Positions 38,951-47,817 of a stretch of 64,000 nt of DNA are shown here, in pieces. How positions within the stretch are numbered: the stretch's first letter is position 1; each line of letters opens with the position of its first letter. A model generated the notes under the pieces. That model was given only the letters and a program-made list of their open reading frames with translations, did no database searches and was not told the DNA's origin. The stretch lies in IMG/VR virus record IMGVR_UViG_2778260992_000001. One strand, 5' to 3'. The translations under genes and the position numbers were made by a program. The stretch comes from a virus. Taxonomy: Duplodnaviria > Heunggongvirae > Uroviricota > Caudoviricetes.

Positions 38951-38967
38951 ACAAGGATTTTTTGAAC

Positions 38968-41900
38968 ATGGAACAGTTCAAGAAGAAAAAGCTACCGCTG
39001 TTTATTGCCGGTGCGGGTGGTAAAAAAAGCAGCAAAAGCTCCAGCCGTACACCGGTTGAAGCCGACGATACCGTAAATTCTCGTGCAATGGCCGCTATCC
39101 TCGATCTTCTTGGGGAAGGGGTAATTGGCGGCTTAGTAAATGGCGCAAGATCTATTTTTATCGACGATCTGCCGATTGTAAATGAAGACGGTTCCTCCAA
39201 CTTCAGCGGAATCACATGGGATTTTCGCGACGGTTCACAAGACCAGACTCCAATGTCTGGCTTTGATTTCGTTGAAACGCCTAAATCCGTCAATATCCAG
39301 TTAAAAAAAACACATTATGTAACGGTTTCAATCGATAACGATGAAGCTGATCGGGTTCGTGTCATCATGAAGTTTCCTTCTTTGCGAAGCATAGATAAAA
39401 AAACTGGTGACACGAACGGTACGACTGTTGAGTACAAGTTCCAGATAGCAAATGGCGACTCAACATTTGTAGATGTGGTCGCTGAAGGTGAAAAAAGCGT
39501 TGGCATTAAGCTAACAGCAAAGAAGACCGGCGTTTATTACCGTAGCTATGAGCTGAAGCTGCCTAAGCCTGGACGAGCATACAAGGTTCGTGTGGTCCGT
39601 ATTACCGATGATAACAGTAGCCAGTATCTCTATAACGATACATGGGTGGATTCAATCGGGGAAATTGTCGATACACCGATGAACTATCCAAACTCTGTTT
39701 TGGTTGGATTGAAGGTAAACTCTGAGCAATTCGGCAGCACCATGCCATCTCGCTCTTATCTGGTGCGTGGCCTAAAAATTCGAGTACCTTCAAACTATAA
39801 CGAGTCCAGTAACACTTACGCTGGGGTATGGGATGGCACTTTTAAGCTGTTGTCTTCTTCGAACCCCGCGTGGATTCTCTTTGATTTGCTGACCAATGCT
39901 CGATATGGCCTTGGTCAGTATGTGTCGGAATCTATGATTGACCTTGGCCAGTTGTACCAGATTGGTCGATATTGTGACGAAGAGGTCGATGATGGCTTTG
40001 GTGGCAAAGAGAAACGCTTTGCAATCAATACGCAGATCACCAGTCGACAGGACGCATACCGGCTAATTCAGGATATTGCCGGAGCATTCCGCGGCATGGT
40101 GTTTTGGGCTGGTGGGATGGTTAACATCATGCAGGATAGCCCATCAGATCCGGTAATGATGTTTACCAACTCTAACGTCAAAGATGGATTGTTTACCTAT
40201 AAAGGTTCTGCGCGTAAAGATCGCCCATCCGTTGCGCTCGTAACCTACAACAACAAGGAGGACGGTTATAAGCAAAACATCGAGTACGTCGAAGATCAGG
40301 ACGCAATGCGCCGTTATGGTGAGCGTAAAACAGAAGTCGTAGCATTTGGCTGTACAAGCCGAGGGCAGGCTCACCGAGTTGGTTTGTGGCTTTTATATAC
40401 CTCCAGAATGGAGTCGGATGTAATTACATTTACTGCCGGCTTAGACGCGTCATTTCTGATGCCTGGTGAAACCGTTCTGATTCAGAACAAATATCGCGCA
40501 GGCAAACGTAACTCAGGTCGAATTGTGGCGTTTACCAAAAACAGCGTCACACTCGATGCGCCTGTGTCGTTAGCCAAAGGCGGCTGCTTTATTCGAATAC
40601 TGAATCAGGAAGGCAAAATCGTTGAACGCGATGTTCTTGAAACTGGCGAAAATATAACAAAAGTTACGTTTTCAAAAGCCCTGTCTTCGGCTGAAACGCC
40701 TGTTTTGAACGGCGTCTGGACTATTACAGAACCAGACCTCGAACCTATGCGCGTTCGCATCGTTAACATCGCGCAGGGGGAAACGCCGGGTAGCTTTGAC
40801 ATCACCGCTGTTGAGAACAATCCGTCTAAATATGAGGCAATCGACAATGGTGCAACGCTGATCCCGCAGAATACGACGGTATTGGACCCAACTTACTCCA
40901 AGCCATCTAATCTGCAAATCACTGAAGGGACTTATCTCTCAAGCCCGGGCAACCTGTCAGTAAAACTGACTGCAACATGGGAAGGGAAATCTCCAGAGTA
41001 TTGGATCAGTTGGCGACGTTCTGATGAAAACAATGTATCGAACTGGCAATCGGCGCGTGTAACCGAAGAGCAATACGAAATCGTTAATGTCGCGGAGAAT
41101 GGACGCTACGACTTCCAGCTGTATGCGGTTTCATTCAACGGTAAAAAAACAGAGATTATCAGTACCGTTTATCAGGTGTTGGGCACAATGACACCGCCGG
41201 ATTCCCCAACGTCATTAACGGCCGTTGGAGACTATCGTAATGTGATACTGAATTGGGTTAATCCAGATTCGGTAGACCTTGATCACATTAATGTTTACGC
41301 ATCCCAGACCAACAATCTGGATACGGCGAAACTGATCGCAGAGTCTGCAAGCACCACCTTTACACATGCTGGTCTTGGGGATAGCGAAACGTGGTATTAC
41401 TGGGTTCGAGCATCGAACAAGCGAGGTATGTTAAGTCCTCCGAACTCAAACTTGGGTACAGAGGCGACAACTCGCGATGTACTGTCGTTCCTGACTGGCA
41501 AAATTACATCTTCCGAGCTTGGTCAGGCTCTGCTTGAGGACATCAACAGCAAAGCCTCTCAAGAAGCAGTTGACGAGTTAAATGAGCATATCAACCAGAG
41601 CGTCGAATCTTTGGAGGGGGCGGTAAACGACGTTAAGGAAGATATAGCTGAATTAGATAAGCAGTTCAGCGATAACCTCGCGGATTTTGAAATAAAATTC
41701 AACGAGCGTAGCGATGCTTTGGAGAACGCACAAACCGAGCTTAAAGGTGAGGTTTCGGCAACGATCGACAAGGTCAATGAAGCGTTTGAAAAAATTGATG
41801 CTACTGATGCTGCAATTGTTGAAATCGAAAACACCGTATCTGAACACGATAAAGCTCTCGCTAATACAGTCGAGGCAATAAAGGCTGCAAGAGATGAAGC

Positions 41901-43695
41901 GGCGGCTCTTATTGCTAAGGAAAGCGAGGCTCGTGTTGAAGGCGATGCTGCAAACGCTAAACAACTGGAAGTGTTGCAGTCAACGGTAGAGGAAAGCTCC
42001 GCTGCCGTTGAAGAAATGAAAAAGACGGTTGCAGAGGTCGATCGTGCCAGTGCAGAACTGACTACGAACATTGAGGCGTTAGCCAAAACAAATATTGACC
42101 TGGCTCTTCGTCAAGATGAAGACCAGCACAAGCAGATGGTCAATAACGCGAAGATCGCAACAACACAGAAAACCTTTGCTGATGATATGTCTGCAATGGC
42201 CACGAAGGTTGAGGAAATTCGCGTAGAAATTGGCGAAGACATTAAGGCCAGTATTCTGGAAGAGTCCACCGCTCGTGCCGATGGCGATGAAGCGTTGGCA
42301 AAGCGTGTCACTCAGCTGCAATCTAAGTTTGAAGGAGATATCAGCGCGGCGATTAGTACAGAGCAGGAGGCTCGTACATCTGCCGATGAAGCTCTGACGA
42401 CACAGATCACTCAGCTTGAGTCGAAAGTAAGCAACGATATCGTCGCAGCTATTAAGGAAGAGCAAGAAGCCCGAGCAACGGAAGATTCGGCTCTGGCAAG
42501 CCAGATCACCCAACTTCAGGCAAAGGTTGATGATGATATTTCTGCTGCAATACGTAGTGAGCAGGAGGCCCGAGCAAGCGGGGACTCTGCGTTAGCCAAA
42601 CAAATAAACCAGCTTCAGTCAAAGGTTGACGGTGATATATCCGCTGCCATCACTCAGGAGCAGGAGGCCAGAGCAAGTGCTGACCAGGCGCTCTCACGAG
42701 AAATTAACAGCCTGCGAGCACAAACCGGAACTGATATTGCCGCAGCGGTTGCTGTAGAGACAAAAGCAAGGACTGATGCCGATAGTGCATTGTCTACCCA
42801 GATTACGTCTCTTACAGCAAAAGCTAATGATCTCGAGGCGTCTCTTGCCAGAGAAACAACGGCTCGTGCAGATGGTGATACCGCTTTAACAAAAGAGGTT
42901 TCAAGTTTAAAAGCACAGACAGCGAAAGATATTAGTGCGGCCGTTGCAGTTGAAACGCAGGCTCGAACTGATGCTGACTCGGCGTTGTCGTCTCAGATCA
43001 CCAAGCTGACCTCTCAATACAAAGAGGATATTAAAGCGGCTGTAGCAACCGAAACGAAAACGCGTACAGAGCAAGATGCGGCATTGGCGACTCAAATCAC
43101 AAACTTAGAGTCTCAAACAGCAGCCAACATTTCTGCGGCGGTCACAACTGAAACGACAGCGAGAACGCAGGCAGATAATGCTCTGAGTGGGCGAATCGAT
43201 ACTCTGAAAGCAGAGGTGGATGGAAATACCGCGACAATTCAACAGCAGGCAACAGCTATTGCTGATACCAACAAAAAAGTGTCAACCGCGTGGACGTTGA
43301 AAATGGAGACTTCAACGAGCGGAGGGCAGAAGTATGTTGCCGGTATTGCGCTTGGTATTGACACCACTGGGCTATCTCAGTTTTTGGTTCAGGCGGACAG
43401 GTTTGGTTTGGTCAACTCTGTCAACGGGAAGATCACCACGCCATTTGTTATCGAAAACAGTATTGCCTATATGAATGGTGCTTATATCAAGGATGGCACA
43501 ATCACCAATGCAAAGGTAGGCGATCTGCAATCTACCAATTTTGTTAGCGGTAGATCTGGATGGCGATTCGGTAAAAATGGAACGCTTGAAATAAACGGTA
43601 ATAGCGGCGGCAATGGGCGATTGGTCATTAATGGTCAGCGGATTGACGTTTATGACGATAACAACGTCCTACGAGTAAGAATTGGCCGTCTGTGA
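38968..43695 (+). CDS. central tail fibre / host specificity protein (lambda J-like)
   Basis: About 1575 aa after M-L-K-I; fibronectin-III-like middle, ten tandem coiled-coil repeats, distinct C-terminal domain. Confidence 0.85.
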   Translation: MEQFKKKKLPLFIAGAGGKKSSKSSSRTPVEADDTVNSRAMAAILDLLGEGVIGGLVNGARSIFIDDLPIVNEDGSSNFSGITWDFRDGSQDQTPMSGFDFVETPKSVNIQLKKTHYVTVSIDNDEADRVRVIMKFPSLRSIDKKTGDTNGTTVEYKFQIANGDSTFVDVVAEGEKSVGIKLTAKKTGVYYRSYELKLPKPGRAYKVRVVRITDDNSSQYLYNDTWVDSIGEIVDTPMNYPNSVLVGLKVNSEQFGSTMPSRSYLVRGLKIRVPSNYNESSNTYAGVWDGTFKLLSSSNPAWILFDLLTNARYGLGQYVSESMIDLGQLYQIGRYCDEEVDDGFGGKEKRFAINTQITSRQDAYRLIQDIAGAFRGMVFWAGGMVNIMQDSPSDPVMMFTNSNVKDGLFTYKGSARKDRPSVALVTYNNKEDGYKQNIEYVEDQDAMRRYGERKTEVVAFGCTSRGQAHRVGLWLLYTSRMESDVITFTAGLDASFLMPGETVLIQNKYRAGKRNSGRIVAFTKNSVTLDAPVSLAKGGCFIRILNQEGKIVERDVLETGENITKVTFSKALSSAETPVLNGVWTITEPDLEPMRVRIVNIAQGETPGSFDITAVENNPSKYEAIDNGATLIPQNTTVLDPTYSKPSNLQITEGTYLSSPGNLSVKLTATWEGKSPEYWISWRRSDENNVSNWQSARVTEEQYEIVNVAENGRYDFQLYAVSFNGKKTEIISTVYQVLGTMTPPDSPTSLTAVGDYRNVILNWVNPDSVDLDHINVYASQTNNLDTAKLIAESASTTFTHAGLGDSETWYYWVRASNKRGMLSPPNSNLGTEATTRDVLSFLTGKITSSELGQALLEDINSKASQEAVDELNEHINQSVESLEGAVNDVKEDIAELDKQFSDNLADFEIKFNERSDALENAQTELKGEVSATIDKVNEAFEKIDATDAAIVEIENTVSEHDKALANTVEAIKAARDEAAALIAKESEARVEGDAANAKQLEVLQSTVEESSAAVEEMKKTVAEVDRASAELTTNIEALAKTNIDLALRQDEDQHKQMVNNAKIATTQKTFADDMSAMATKVEEIRVEIGEDIKASILEESTARADGDEALAKRVTQLQSKFEGDISAAISTEQEARTSADEALTTQITQLESKVSNDIVAAIKEEQEARATEDSALASQITQLQAKVDDDISAAIRSEQEARASGDSALAKQINQLQSKVDGDISAAITQEQEARASADQALSREINSLRAQTGTDIAAAVAVETKARTDADSALSTQITSLTAKANDLEASLARETTARADGDTALTKEVSSLKAQTAKDISAAVAVETQARTDADSALSSQITKLTSQYKEDIKAAVATETKTRTEQDAALATQITNLESQTAANISAAVTTETTARTQADNALSGRIDTLKAEVDGNTATIQQQATAIADTNKKVSTAWTLKMETSTSGGQKYVAGIALGIDTTGLSQFLVQADRFGLVNSVNGKITTPFVIENSIAYMNGAYIKDGTITNAKVGDLQSTNFVSGRSGWRFGKNGTLEINGNSGGNGRLVINGQRIDVYDDNNVLRVRIGRL
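42250..43240 (+). repeat. ten tandem repeats of about 96 nt (32 aa) inside J-like gene
   Basis: Units like EEQEARATEDSALASQITQLQAKVDDDISAAIR repeated with variation. Confidence 0.8.
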
Positions 43696-43788: not shown

Positions 43789-46700
43789 ATGTGGTACAGG
43801 GAAGGTACTATCACATTTACACAGGGTAGCAATACTCTGGTTGGGGCAGGGACAGCCTGGAACGTAACAGCTAATGGTGTGTTGCCTGGGATGATCGTCA
43901 TTGGCCCCGACAACAAGCTGTATGAGATCAAGCGCGTAACCAGTGATACGAACATTGTTCTCTCAGAACCTTATACCGGCGAAACTCAGTCTGAAGTTCC
44001 GTGCCGAATCATTACGACCTATGAAGGCGACTTAACACAGTTTAGCGCGCGCTTTACTGCACTAATGTCGCGTATGTCGGCTGATTCAAAGTCCATGCGC
44101 AGTTGGTTGACTGCTCTGGATGAGGTGACAATCGAGCGTGAAGACGGTACAGAAGTGACCGTTAAGCCGCTAATGCAGATCGTCAACGAGCACAACGAAA
44201 ACGTTGAGTGGTATAAAAATAACACTGACGCGATTGATGCTGCTGGCGACAAAGCTCGTGAGGCGGCGGCCAGTGCTGCCGCAGCAGCAGAAAGCGCCAA
44301 TACCGCTGGAGAAAAAGCCTCTCAAGCGTCTCAAAGTGCATCCGCTGCGGCATCCTCACAAAGTGCTGCAAGTGCGAGCGCAACTGCTGCGAAAAAATCT
44401 GAAACGAACGCACAAGCCGCAAAAGAAGCGGCAGCAGAATCAGCATCTGTAGCGTCGGCCAAAGCATCGGAGGCAGCAACATCTGCGTCCAGTGCCTCTG
44501 CATCTAAGGATGCAGCCAAAGCATCAGAGACTAACGCTTCATCGAGCGCAAACGCGGCAGCATCATCGGCAACAGAAGCTGCAAATTCGTCTAAGGCAGC
44601 AAAAACGTCAGAGGCAAACGCAAAAGCATCTGAAACGGCAGCCGAACAGAGTGCATCGTCTGCAAACAGTTCGAAATCTGCGGCAGAAGCGTCAGCAAGC
44701 GCAGCCTCAGCAAGTGCGGATAGTGCTTCATCAAGTGCAACAGCGGCAGGAAAATCTGCGGATAGCGCATTGTCATCAGCGACAACAGCTACCACAAAAG
44801 CGACAGAGGCGACGAGTCAGGCTACAGCTGCTAAAAATTCAGCATCTGCAGCAAAAACCTCTGAAACAAATGCAAAGACTTCAGAAGACAATGCTGCTTC
44901 CTCTAAGGCGGCAGCTGCTGAATCTGCAAGTTCTGCGTCTGCATCAGCCTCCTCAGCATCCGCTTCAAAAGATGAGGCTACCAAGCAGGCATCAGAAGCG
45001 AAGGGCAGTGCTTCAACGGCATCCACGAAAGCAACAGAGGCGGCAGGCAGTGCGACGGCTGCATCTCAGAGCAAAACTGCTGCTGAATCCGCTGCGACCC
45101 GTGCGGAAGCTGCTGCTGATCGTGCTGAAGAGATTGCCGGTGCGGTTGCGATGGAAGACGCAAGCCTTACAACTAAAGGTGTTGTGAAACTTAGCAGTGC
45201 TGTCGATAGCACCAGTGAATCGCTGGCCGCAACGCCAAAAGCAGTTAAAGCAGCCAATGACAATGCGAATAGCAGGGTGCCATCTAACCGAAAAATTAAC
45301 GGAAAAGCACTGACTGCGGATATAACATTAACGCCGAAAGATATTGGTACTTTAAATTCAGTAACGATGTCTTTCTCTGGCGGGGCTGGGTGGTTCAAAC
45401 TGGCTACGGTTACCATGCCACAAGCGAGTTCCATCGTTTACATCACATTGATTGGTGGTGCTGGATATAATGTTAACTCCCCTATGCAGGCTGGTATATC
45501 TGAACTTGTTCTTCGTGCGGGAAATGGAAATCCAAAAGGTCTTACTGGTGCGTTATGGCGAAGGACATCGGTTGGATTTACTAATTTTGCATGGGTGAAT
45601 ACATCCGGCGATACATATGATATTTATGTTGAGATTGGCAATTATGCGACGAGTGTAAATGTCCACTGGGATTGTACTGCAAATGCGTCAGTTTCTATTT
45701 ATACATCGCCAACATATTCAGCGAGTAAGCCTGCCAGCGTTACCGATGGTGTTGTTTATACGATGTATAGCTCACATCAGAAACCTACGCCATCAGATAT
45801 TGGAGCACTGCCAACAACCGGAGGAACAGTTTCTGGTCCGTTGTCTGTTACAGGCGGATTAACTGGTTCATTGAATGGTAATGCAAGTACAGCAACGAAA
45901 TTACAGACGACAAGAACTATCGGTGGAGTTGGTTTCGACGGTTCTGCCAATATTAATCTTCCAGGTGTAAACACTACGGGTAATCAGAACACCACTGGTA
46001 ATGCCGCAACTGCTACAAAACTACAGACGGCAAGAACTATCGGCGGCGTGAGCTTTGATGGTACTGCAAATATTAATTTGCCAGGTGTTAATACGACTGG
46101 TAATCAGAATACAACAGGTAATGCGGCTACTGCTACGAAGTTGCAGACTGCGCGTACTATTAATGGGGTGTCGTTTGACGGTTCGGCAAATATTTCCTTG
46201 TCACCAGCAAATATAGGTTGCCCGGCATCTCCTACTGGTTGGTTAACTACAGGAAGTAATGGCGGAGCAATAACAACAGCCCAGTTAGTGACGTTATTGC
46301 AAAATAATGGAGCCTTTAACACAAAGGCATGGATTGCTCGATGTGCGTGGGCCTATGCCAATAGCGCAACCATACCAAATAGTGAAACTGGTTGTGGCGT
46401 TATTCCATTGGCAGGAGCTGTTATAGAAGTATTTAATAACGGTAGTAGTTCAAATAATTATACGATCCGCATAACAACGGCCACAACGACAAGTGTTTCC
46501 GGTGCTCTCACTAATGCGGAGTTTATCTATGTATTTAATGGCACAGATTATTCTCCAGGATGGCGAAGAGTATATAACACGAAAAACAAACCAACTGCAT
46601 CTGACGTTGGTGCATTACCTCTTACCGGTGGTACATTATCTGGAGGTTTGACATCTTCTGGTGAGATCGTTTCAAAATATGCAAATGGTTTCCGCATTGC

Positions 46701-47817
46701 TTACGGTAGCTTTGGGTTCTTTATCCGTAATGACGGCGGCAGCACATATTTCATGCTAACAGCATCAGGAGATACGTTAGGTTCATGGAACGGCTTGCGA
46801 CCGATTACAATTAATAATACTAGCGGTGTTGTGTCTATTGGTAATGGACTAAATGTTACTGGTGGCGTAAATGGTAGTTTGAACGGTAATGCTTCAACAG
46901 CTACGAAGTTGCAAACAGCGAGAAACATCAATGGTGTTAAGTTTGATGGCTCAGGCGATATCAACATTAATACATTGGTATCTCGTGGCCGAGTTACGGC
47001 GTTAAGCGGCTCTACTCAAGGCACTGCTGGCATTCAAATGTACGAGGCGTACAACAATAGCTATCCGACCACGTATGGCAACGTATTGCACATGAAAGGT
47101 GCGAGTGCTGCTGGCGAGGGTGAGTTGCTTATTGGCTGGAGTGGTACGAGCGGTGCACATGCGCCGGTTTTCATTCGCTCCCGAAGAGATACCACTGATG
47201 CAGCATGGTCAGCGTGGGCACAGGTATATACCGCTAAGGATTCAATCCCTGGTGTGAATACAACCGGTAATCAGAACACTACTGGTAATGCTGCCACCGC
47301 CACAAAATTGCAGACAGCAAGGAAAATTGCTGGTGTGGCGTTTGATGGCTCTGCCGATATTACTTTGACTGCGGCTAACCTTAATGCCTATACGAAAACA
47401 GAGGTAACAAACCTTCTAAGTTCCTATGTGAAGAGCAGTTCTCTTCCAAGCATGACTGTGCGAACTTCCTCTGTTTCAGGTGGGGATATGGGCATGAGTT
47501 TGTCCGCATTCATTAGCCACCTTAAATCAAATGGGGCGTTTAGCAAAAGTTATTGGATTGGCTTTGGCGATGCTATGGGATTCAATGCTGGCAGTATCAA
47601 CAATATAACGGGATTTGGTGCTGTAGAATTAGCAGAATCCATAATCGAAGTTTTTAATCTACCTAATGGTGATTATACAATTCGTTTAACGACGTCACAC
47701 AAAGCTGACTACGGTGGGATTACAAACGCAATCCTCGTTTATCACTACCGCAGTAATAGAAACCCGGCAGGTCAATGGCTTAAATTTGCCGGTACTCTTG
47801 GGGCTACAAACAACTGA
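43789..47817 (+). CDS. side tail fibre protein
   Basis: 1342 aa; Ala/Ser-rich low-complexity region, repeated GNQNTTGNAATATKLQTARTIGGVSFDG units, distinct C-terminal domain. Confidence 0.8.
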   Translation: MWYREGTITFTQGSNTLVGAGTAWNVTANGVLPGMIVIGPDNKLYEIKRVTSDTNIVLSEPYTGETQSEVPCRIITTYEGDLTQFSARFTALMSRMSADSKSMRSWLTALDEVTIEREDGTEVTVKPLMQIVNEHNENVEWYKNNTDAIDAAGDKAREAAASAAAAAESANTAGEKASQASQSASAAASSQSAASASATAAKKSETNAQAAKEAAAESASVASAKASEAATSASSASASKDAAKASETNASSSANAAASSATEAANSSKAAKTSEANAKASETAAEQSASSANSSKSAAEASASAASASADSASSSATAAGKSADSALSSATTATTKATEATSQATAAKNSASAAKTSETNAKTSEDNAASSKAAAAESASSASASASSASASKDEATKQASEAKGSASTASTKATEAAGSATAASQSKTAAESAATRAEAAADRAEEIAGAVAMEDASLTTKGVVKLSSAVDSTSESLAATPKAVKAANDNANSRVPSNRKINGKALTADITLTPKDIGTLNSVTMSFSGGAGWFKLATVTMPQASSIVYITLIGGAGYNVNSPMQAGISELVLRAGNGNPKGLTGALWRRTSVGFTNFAWVNTSGDTYDIYVEIGNYATSVNVHWDCTANASVSIYTSPTYSASKPASVTDGVVYTMYSSHQKPTPSDIGALPTTGGTVSGPLSVTGGLTGSLNGNASTATKLQTTRTIGGVGFDGSANINLPGVNTTGNQNTTGNAATATKLQTARTIGGVSFDGTANINLPGVNTTGNQNTTGNAATATKLQTARTINGVSFDGSANISLSPANIGCPASPTGWLTTGSNGGAITTAQLVTLLQNNGAFNTKAWIARCAWAYANSATIPNSETGCGVIPLAGAVIEVFNNGSSSNNYTIRITTATTTSVSGALTNAEFIYVFNGTDYSPGWRRVYNTKNKPTASDVGALPLTGGTLSGGLTSSGEIVSKYANGFRIAYGSFGFFIRNDGGSTYFMLTASGDTLGSWNGLRPITINNTSGVVSIGNGLNVTGGVNGSLNGNASTATKLQTARNINGVKFDGSGDININTLVSRGRVTALSGSTQGTAGIQMYEAYNNSYPTTYGNVLHMKGASAAGEGELLIGWSGTSGAHAPVFIRSRRDTTDAAWSAWAQVYTAKDSIPGVNTTGNQNTTGNAATATKLQTARKIAGVAFDGSADITLTAANLNAYTKTEVTNLLSSYVKSSSLPSMTVRTSSVSGGDMGMSLSAFISHLKSNGAFSKSYWIGFGDAMGFNAGSINNITGFGAVELAESIIEVFNLPNGDYTIRLTTSHKADYGGITNAILVYHYRSNRNPAGQWLKFAGTLGATNN
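44220..45160 (+). repeat. Ala/Ser/Thr/Lys/Glu low-complexity coding region in tail fibre
   Basis: GCN-rich codon repeats; spawns spurious ORFs in other frames. Confidence 0.75.
45870..46200 (+). repeat. tandem tail-fibre repeat units (coding), further copies near 46875 and 47250
   Basis: Three consecutive copies of about 120 nt with near-identical protein sequence. Confidence 0.75.

Follow-up and report, generated by a model that had tools for sequence, protein, structure and literature searches.

The virus record IMGVR_UViG_2778260992_000001 (Caudoviricetes) supplied the 64,000-nucleotide (nt) stretch of DNA analyzed here, hereafter the window, which corresponds to an SSU5-like phage-plasmid and carries a J-like tail-tip / central-fibre gene whose product contains ten tandem in-frame units, nine of them of 33 amino acids (aa). 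The array is very probably a helical shaft built of these units, and the reading that we favour, with even confidence, is that it forms the distal ~330 residues of the alpha-helical shaft in a lambda-J-like central fibre, as a modular, length-variable coiled coil that is probably metastable. As a repeat alone the array is ordinary, being an unusually long and regular example of a known central-fibre shaft, and its main interest lies in the natural length series that it offers for testing the fold-switch model of such shafts. An earlier note on this DNA had described ten tandem coiled-coil repeats that could expand or contract by recombination and so change fibre length or host range; the point that it missed, and likely the main one, is that shafts of this type are reported to be metastable and fold-switching (PMC12874032).

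Repeat layout and predicted shaft structure

The ten units span nt 42238-43224 (aa 1091-1419, 329 residues), and their layout within the gene is given below, with aa numbered throughout from the ATG at 38968. This ATG is the probable start, although the open reading frame (ORF) opens at a TTG at 38962, which would yield an alternative product of 1577 aa. Units were assigned by register layout and with a hidden Markov model (HMM) of the unit.

38968..43695, + strand: J-like tail-tip / central-fibre protein gene, 1575 aa counted from the ATG (ORF list, translation)
41509..42237, + strand: proximal non-repetitive part of the presumed helical shaft, ~aa 848-1090 (proline-free; hydrophobic periodicity 3.56, heptad-like)
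41905..41991, + strand: isolated degenerate 33-aa unit, aa 980-1008 (unit HMM i-Evalue 1.8e-6)
42238..42336, + strand: unit 1, 33 aa, DIKASILEESTARADGDEALAKRVTQLQSKFEG
42337..42435, + strand: unit 2, 33 aa
42436..42534, + strand: unit 3, 33 aa
42535..42633, + strand: unit 4, 33 aa
42634..42732, + strand: unit 5, 33 aa
42733..42831, + strand: unit 6, 33 aa
42832..42927, + strand: unit 7, 32 aa, first residue absent, most divergent unit
42928..43026, + strand: unit 8, 33 aa
43027..43125, + strand: unit 9, 33 aa
43126..43224, + strand: unit 10, 33 aa, 3 aa ahead of the tip domain
43234..43638, + strand: Phage_Tail_Tip (DUF1983) domain, aa 1423-1557 (Pfam E = 1.4e-41)

When the protein and the gene were compared with themselves, identity was highest at an offset of 33 aa (0.47-0.486) and of 99 nt (0.53); in shuffled sequence the best of all offsets reached 0.148 ± 0.009, which puts the value of 0.486 at z = 37, and every unit was recognized by the unit HMM with i-Evalues of 1e-16 to 1e-21. 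The ten tandem, variable units of the earlier note were borne out by this self-comparison, which the note had itself put forward as a check, and its placement of the array at 42250-43240 was nearly right; conversely, the period of 96 nt / 32 aa that it gave applies to unit 7 only, the other nine units being of 99 nt / 33 aa. Seven residues are invariant across the ten units (A4, E9, R13, D17, A19, L20 and L27), and no Pfam family was found over the array at E <= 0.1. The isolated degenerate unit lies ~110 aa upstream of the array and keeps the same relative position in 13 of 14 orthologues, whatever their unit number, the exception being Klebsiella phage p4727, with one weak unit-like match (score 10) at another position. 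Directly before unit 1, at 42214-42243, a 12-nt period (GAAATTCGCGAA, 2.5 copies) encodes EEIRVEIGED and is probably trivial.

At the DNA level the units are strongly diverged. Identity between units ranges from 28 to 72% in aa and from 39 to 65% in nt, with units 3 and 4 forming the closest pair (72% aa, 65% nt); by codon position it amounts to 53%, 68% and 31.5% at positions 1, 2 and 3, respectively, and each of the seven invariant residues is encoded by two to four different codons. Exact nt matches between units reach 12 nt at most, and Tandem Repeats Finder (TRF) reported no array at the repeat region, since the repeat is too diverged in DNA. The near-identical DNA units of a slippage-prone tandem repeat are therefore not what is found here. 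Because third codon positions are only ~31% identical and several codons serve each invariant residue, the units are, on sequence grounds, old duplicates kept by selection on the protein, neither a young nor a homogenized DNA repeat. Two other origins were considered and rejected: recent duplication or concerted evolution, as third codon positions are saturated, and duplication of a five-unit block, as the identity of units i and i+5 (28-48%) does not exceed that of other pairs.

AlphaFold2 (AF2) was run twice on the monomer of aa 1079-1575, without an alignment and with 118 homologues. In the first model a helix extends over aa 1080-1439 with a short break at aa 1257-1260, and the predicted local distance difference test (pLDDT) is mostly 70-80 and lower near the break; in the second, the helix covers aa 1080-1406, interrupted at aa 1252-1255, the stretch aa 1383-1410 is modelled with low confidence, and the chain turns to beta-strand within unit 10, from aa 1412 on. 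A long helix is thus predicted directly N-terminal of the beta-prism domain, with the array ending at aa 1419 and the tip domain starting at aa 1423. No proline occurs between aa 826 and 1491, and within the proximal part of the shaft the AF2 model covers aa 1079-1090, which are helical. The tip domain aligns in sequence with lambda J 839-971, and its model matched the lambda central tail fibre in Foldseek (8xcj/8xci, E = 3e-7), which gave no match outside the tip domain; by both sequence and model, the Phage_Tail_Tip domain corresponds to the beta-prism 'central straight fibre' of lambda gpJ.

Hydrophobic or small residues occupy unit positions 2, 6, (9), (13), 16, 20, 24, 27 and 31, that is, nine core positions in 33 residues, with a spacing of 3.67 and a spectral peak at 3.65. 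A continuous 7-residue register does not run through the array (33 mod 7 = 5); as 33 is no multiple of 7, a heptad register must break in every unit.

Unit number and its changes among relatives

Fourteen orthologues were retrieved, and the unit HMM was used to count their units, with the following result.

10 units: window; S. sonnei CP045933
9 units: E. coli CP027358; phage PhiR41_1
6 units: Y. pestis pMT1; E. hormaechei CP053644
5 units: SSU5; C. freundii; E. coli CP124469 and CP101235; Cronobacter; E. marmotae
4 units: S. Typhi pHCM2; Buttiauxella
0 units: Klebsiella phage p4727

Shaft and tip occur at 95-99% identity in ~165 E. coli plasmids, and in a spread sample of more distant plasmids the matches were shorter by whole units; matching plasmid records number 435 in all. 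Comparing repeat number across relatives, as the earlier note had proposed, therefore revealed length polymorphism and not an invariant count. With regard to the consequences that it had foreseen, a change of fibre length with unit number would follow arithmetically from the sequences, whereas no simple link exists between unit number and host, because the plasmids of E. coli alone carry 5-, 9- and 10-unit alleles. Terminal units are usually conserved in position while internal ones vary across orthologues: the first unit is closest to window unit 1 in about half of them, and the last unit is closest to window unit 10 in all but one. The J orthologue of Klebsiella phage vB_KpnS_p4727 has 2210 aa and lacks the 33-aa array, and therefore its C-terminal half must be built differently. 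Among more distant DUF1983 homologues, 118 of 120 contain the unit, in 1-11 copies with a modal spacing of 33 (36-39 in some lineages). A literature search found no report joining DUF1983 with repeats and a coiled coil.

Two pairs of genes record how the number changes, the first through a segment of the window.

42521..42619, + strand: 99-nt segment absent from the 9-unit allele of E. coli NZ_CP027358 and two other genomes (pairwise alignment, junction analysis)

The J gene of CP027358 equals that of the window minus exactly 99 nt, with units 3 and 4 fused, and the end-points of the missing segment can be placed anywhere within a 10-nt in-register microhomology, CAAAGGTTGA, common to both units. 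This exact junction is present in 3 of the 167 complete E. coli genomes that carry the shaft; the remaining 164 keep the 10-unit allele. The genes of PhiR41_1 and S. sonnei CP045933, a lineage ~30% diverged from the window, differ by one clean 99-nt indel, flanked by an 11-nt in-register match, GCTGCTATTAA, and are otherwise 99.74% identical. The two one-unit (99-nt) indels are independent, recent and exact, in genes that are otherwise ~99% identical. Unit number almost certainly changes by slippage at such microhomologies (10-11 nt) between neighbouring units; each change adds or removes a single unit and preserves the frame, but such events are rare, and this is no fast-switching locus. Ordinary homologous recombination is unlikely, because the units are too diverged (12-nt longest match, 31% identity at third positions). 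Hence, the earlier proposal of expansion and contraction by recombination holds as far as unit number varies (10, 9, 6, 5, 4), and has to be amended as to the process, rare microhomology events (3/167) taking the place of ordinary recombination.

Further differences among the orthologues lie outside or across the array. J is mosaic: its first ~2655 nt (to ~aa 885, where the helical shaft starts) are ~90% identical in PhiR41_1 and CP054387, and in the array region (42100-43400) the gene of S. sonnei CP045933, a close relative, shares just ~69% identity, which points to a recombination boundary (41618) where the shaft begins. The part of J that follows the array measures 156 aa in the window (43225-43695), SSU5, Cronobacter and others, and 268-295 aa in pMT1, pHCM2, Buttiauxella, E. 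hormaechei and E. coli CP101235; therefore, some lineages have an extra C-terminal domain. In two E. coli plasmids, NZ_CP085184 and NZ_CP029421, J is interrupted by an element of the IS3 family of insertion sequences (IS1203, ISEc52), and these phage-plasmids probably make no infectious tails.

Pyocin kinship, possible fold switching and rival readings

A 33-column profile of the unit was compared with the sequences of the Protein Data Bank (PDB), of which 3 out of 177,635 matched: T1 gp33 (9l9p_S, E = 9.5e-8), residues 1034-1062 of the F2-pyocin tail fibre (ASLQSEQTARANADSALAQRIDTVQASTD, E = 9.4e-5), located just before its tip domain, and 9ze4_N, a J-type fibre (E = 0.002), for which a literature search turned up no publication. 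With shaft and tip together as the query, the F2-pyocin fibre was matched at E = 1.2e-24. The F-pyocin shaft has been solved as a trimeric coiled coil that carries side fibres (PMC13455828; bioRxiv 10.64898/2026.02.24.707460), and residues 907-1084 of the PAO1 F-pyocin central fibre PA0641 form such a trimeric coiled-coil shaft, which has a stutter right before the prism (bioRxiv 10.64898/2026.02.24.707460). The coiled coil proposed in the earlier note is thereby supported in part, by an AF2 prediction of helix over the array and by the occurrence of the unit in the F2-pyocin fibre, while it is in the PA0641 equivalent that three strands have been resolved.

In F7 pyocin, the whole 163-residue coiled coil (921-1083) is reported to become a beta-prism on cell contact (PMC12874032, preprint); through this switch the tip is opened and the tape measure ejected, and killing is lost when mutations prevent the prism from forming (PMC12874032). 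The associated motif of 11 residues, SxSxxMxxLxS, has small residues at the prism corners, and at its M position an Asp or Glu is often paired with an Arg four residues away (PMC12874032). The main text of this preprint makes no mention of repeats, periodicity or SSU5 (PMC12874032). Each of the ten units of the window array contains the motif without mismatch twice, in reverse at unit positions 4-14 and forward at 19-29; forward at 12-22 it is perfect in 6 of the 10, and at least 4 of its 5 positions agree in every unit. Perfect matches number 27, versus ~5.8 in shuffles that preserve composition (maxima 8 and 9). Furthermore, the invariant E9 and D17 fall on M positions and R13 lies four residues from each, matching the pattern of the preprint.

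On this analogy, the favoured mechanism would run as follows. Three chains would form a parallel coiled coil in the virion, by analogy with the trimeric J hub and the solved F-pyocin shaft (PMC12874032; PMC13455828). The heptad would break in every unit, giving an average core spacing of 3.67 that is hendecad-like, and the shaft would be metastable. With a coiled-coil rise of 0.148 nm per residue, its length would be ~49 nm for ten units, or ~4.9 nm per unit. After the cell surface has been engaged, by the distal end or by the side fibres, the coiled coil would refold onto the beta-prism of the tip domain, acting as a 'seed', as is reported for F7 pyocin; the fibre would become shorter, the tail tip would open, and the tape-measure protein would be released. 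With 11-residue strands stacked at intervals of 0.48 nm, the prism would by rough arithmetic be ~14 nm long, and hence the shortening stroke large, and unit number would set reach together with stroke or stored energy. That the array switches fold at all is, by analogy, a serious possibility that we place slightly short of even. A further step, in which the 33-residue unit is the structural quantum of a fold-switching 'spring', contributing a fixed coiled-coil length and a fixed block of beta-prism strands, so that SSU5-like phage-plasmids would have tuned the stroke and stored energy of a non-contractile tail in steps from 4 to 10 units, is speculative and we regard it as rather doubtful.

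Several observations weigh against this mechanism. The monomer AF2 models, with or without the alignment, are helical over nine and a half units and show no alternative beta state, and the 3.67 periodicity was deduced by arithmetic and from hydrophobicity along the sequence rather than from a structure. When the array by itself served as phmmer query against the PDB, the F-pyocin fibre was not recovered at E <= 0.01, and the proposed pyocin link is drawn from one strong unit, the motif and a shared position. The motif itself is loose, as Ala, Ser, Thr, Val and Gly make up ~48% of the array (159/329), though the shuffles control for composition; moreover, its four matches per unit overlap without a clean alternation of direction, and no consistent strand map can be derived from them. 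The array is also twice as long as the F7 segment, with ~240 further, presumably helical residues upstream, and the switch is reported in a preprint on a tailocin; by its authors' account, lambda and T5 are without such an extensive switch (PMC12874032).

The main rival is a passive spacer, in which a stable three-stranded coiled-coil rod serves only to keep the beta-prism tip at a fixed distance from the tail hub, without refolding, and reach, for instance through O-antigen or capsule, is adjusted by the number of units. A helix predicted with and without alignment, a length that varies in whole units, and terminal units that hold their position while internal ones vary are all in keeping with such a rod, and lambda and T5 function without a large switch (PMC12874032). 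A rod would leave aside that an invariant framework of small residues and Glu/Asp-Arg pairs fits the fold-switch motif in every unit; the heptad discontinuities forced on each unit argue against a maximally stable rod, and the F-pyocin shaft, a probable homologue, is reported to switch (PMC12874032). We consider the spacer a credible alternative, held at clearly less than even confidence.

Two other roles would tie the units to side fibres or to the DNA itself. The units might bind side tail fibres, more units allowing for more, or differently placed, fibres; F-pyocin side fibres indeed attach to the coiled-coil shaft, and a side-fibre gene of 1342 aa follows J, but the pyocin docking site is a single kink and no repeat, the N-terminus of the window side fibre has no detectable similarity to solved chains (PDB hits at aa 790-1033 only), and downstream fibres vary widely among plasmids of equal unit number, the reverse being also true, which makes docking improbable. 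A DNA contingency locus, where repeats promote frequent recombination or slippage and fibre length is switched at a high rate, could account for the pair of independent indels, each of exactly one unit, that separate nearly identical genes. It is very hard to reconcile with units that are 39-65% identical in nt, with 31.5% identity at third positions and a 12-nt longest exact match, with the silence of TRF, and with a 10-unit allele kept in 164 of 167 E. coli genomes; a role as a fast contingency locus was rejected on these grounds, and we hold it to be extremely improbable.

The favoured reading, a modular shaft that may switch fold, bears on the question of where non-contractile tails find the energy to breach the cell envelope, to which the coiled-coil-to-prism switch of F-pyocin is the only experimental answer so far. 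The sequence framework of the F-pyocin is now found in an inducible family of E. coli phage-plasmids that includes Y. pestis pMT1 and S. Typhi pHCM2, and, as unit number differs naturally between near-identical genes, the length dependence of the mechanism can be tested directly. If the spring reading were true, the allele series, with its ~99% identical pairs that differ by exactly one unit, would be a ready-made set for measuring the dependence of conformational energy and reach on length when siphophages infect. The units also lend themselves to modular engineering of fibre length, in phages as in tailocins.

Genomic setting and comparison with known systems

Outside the shaft and tip, the following features of J and of its neighbour were recognized.

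39271..40530, + strand: N-terminal hub region with FNIII-A_GpJ (aa 102-236) and Phage-tail_3 (aa 358-521) (Pfam E = 1.5e-29 and 1.6e-33)
40900..41151, + strand: fibronectin type III (FNIII) domain, aa 645-728, borderline (Pfam fn3 E = 4.2e-5, 24.1 bits vs cut-off 25)
43789..47817, + strand: side tail-fibre gene, downstream of J, 1342 aa (Pfam Gp34_trimer E = 2.3e-28)

NCBIfam lambda_TipJ aligns with aa 23-957 (E = 1.9e-157), with a score of 525.8 bits vs a cut-off of 1950 bits; since the score lies below the cut-off, the protein is, judging from its sequence, J-like and no lambda-J equivalog. The earlier label of a J-like gene was accordingly upheld by the Pfam domains FNIII-A_GpJ, Phage-tail_3 and Phage_Tail_Tip, by lambda_TipJ, and by the lambda-like L-K-I-J order in relatives. 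The window reads tape measure - M - L - K - I - J, as in lambda, its K-like ORF having JAB and NlpC/P60 domains, and relatives are annotated in the order L, C40 peptidase, tail assembly protein and J-like gene. The protein terminates 18 aa past the tip domain, without a lambda-type receptor-binding domain (RBD).

The J-like gene is 99.0% identical in nt to the 'tail host specificity protein J' of Escherichia phage Cyrano, a plasmid prophage of E. coli LF82 that yields siphovirus particles (PMC9928086). The Cyrano tail was published as 259 ± 12 nm long, vs 230 nm predicted from the tape measure; this excess might include the tip and central fibre, and PMC9928086 gives no fibre measurement. As for the side fibre, its PDB matches, Mu tail fibre protein S and T4 gp34, are confined to aa 790-1033, a trimerisation region of the T4 gp34 / Mu S type, and its N-terminus showed no detectable similarity to any solved chain and no recognizable attachment domain in PDB and Pfam. 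From one relative to the next, the side-fibre gene and the small genes that follow are nearly always different.

Among known systems, the array resembles hendecad-type (11/3) and other non-heptad coiled coils, such as tetrabrachion and the stalks of trimeric autotransporters. A core spacing of 3.67 and a stalk length that varies in whole repeats would be common to both; however, there is no sequence relationship, the likeness appears to be geometric only, and a self-identity comparison found no 11-aa sub-repeat in the array.

T1 gp33, which belongs with other J-like proteins of the Drexlerviridae / DUF1983 kind, gives the best sequence match to the array (E = 1.2e-10) and likewise has 33-aa units before the common tip domain at its end, but only ~3-4 of them. 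Two consecutive units at residues ~913-978 are nearly identical (DDIQASLTDIREVIATETEALSREIDQLKAQIG), and indicate that a unit was recently duplicated in this other lineage of phages. Since the T1 gp33 C-terminus (821-1172) is not resolved by cryo-electron microscopy (PMC11945409), T1 provides no structural test.

In lambda gpJ, the hub is followed by two FNIII domains, a short alpha-helical shaft (AHS), the beta-prism 'central straight fibre' and the RBD (PMC11101478). Because the tip domain matches lambda J 839-971 and the lambda fibre, the array occupies the place of the short helical shaft. The two proteins are alike in this domain order and in their homologous tip domains, and lambda shaft residues 841-861 change secondary structure upon tail opening; they differ in that the lambda shaft is a short three-helix bundle without a repeat array, and in that lambda J continues into a LamB-binding domain.

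The F-type pyocin central fibre (F7 central fibre protein, CFP; F2/PA0641; PDB 25vf) differs in length, with a shaft of ~163-178 aa and one clear unit (1034-1062) against ten units, 329 aa and ~240 upstream residues in the window, and its shaft is mostly heptad with one stutter (bioRxiv 10.64898/2026.02.24.707460), whereas the window array consists of regular 33-aa units. Further, the pyocin is a tailocin and the window a phage, in whose sequence side-fibre docking on the shaft is undetectable. Conversely, both have a J-like hub and a long coiled-coil shaft, predicted in the window, directly before the beta-prism, and they share the 33-aa unit of the array, the SxSxxMxxLxS pattern and the Glu/Asp-Arg pairs at i±4.

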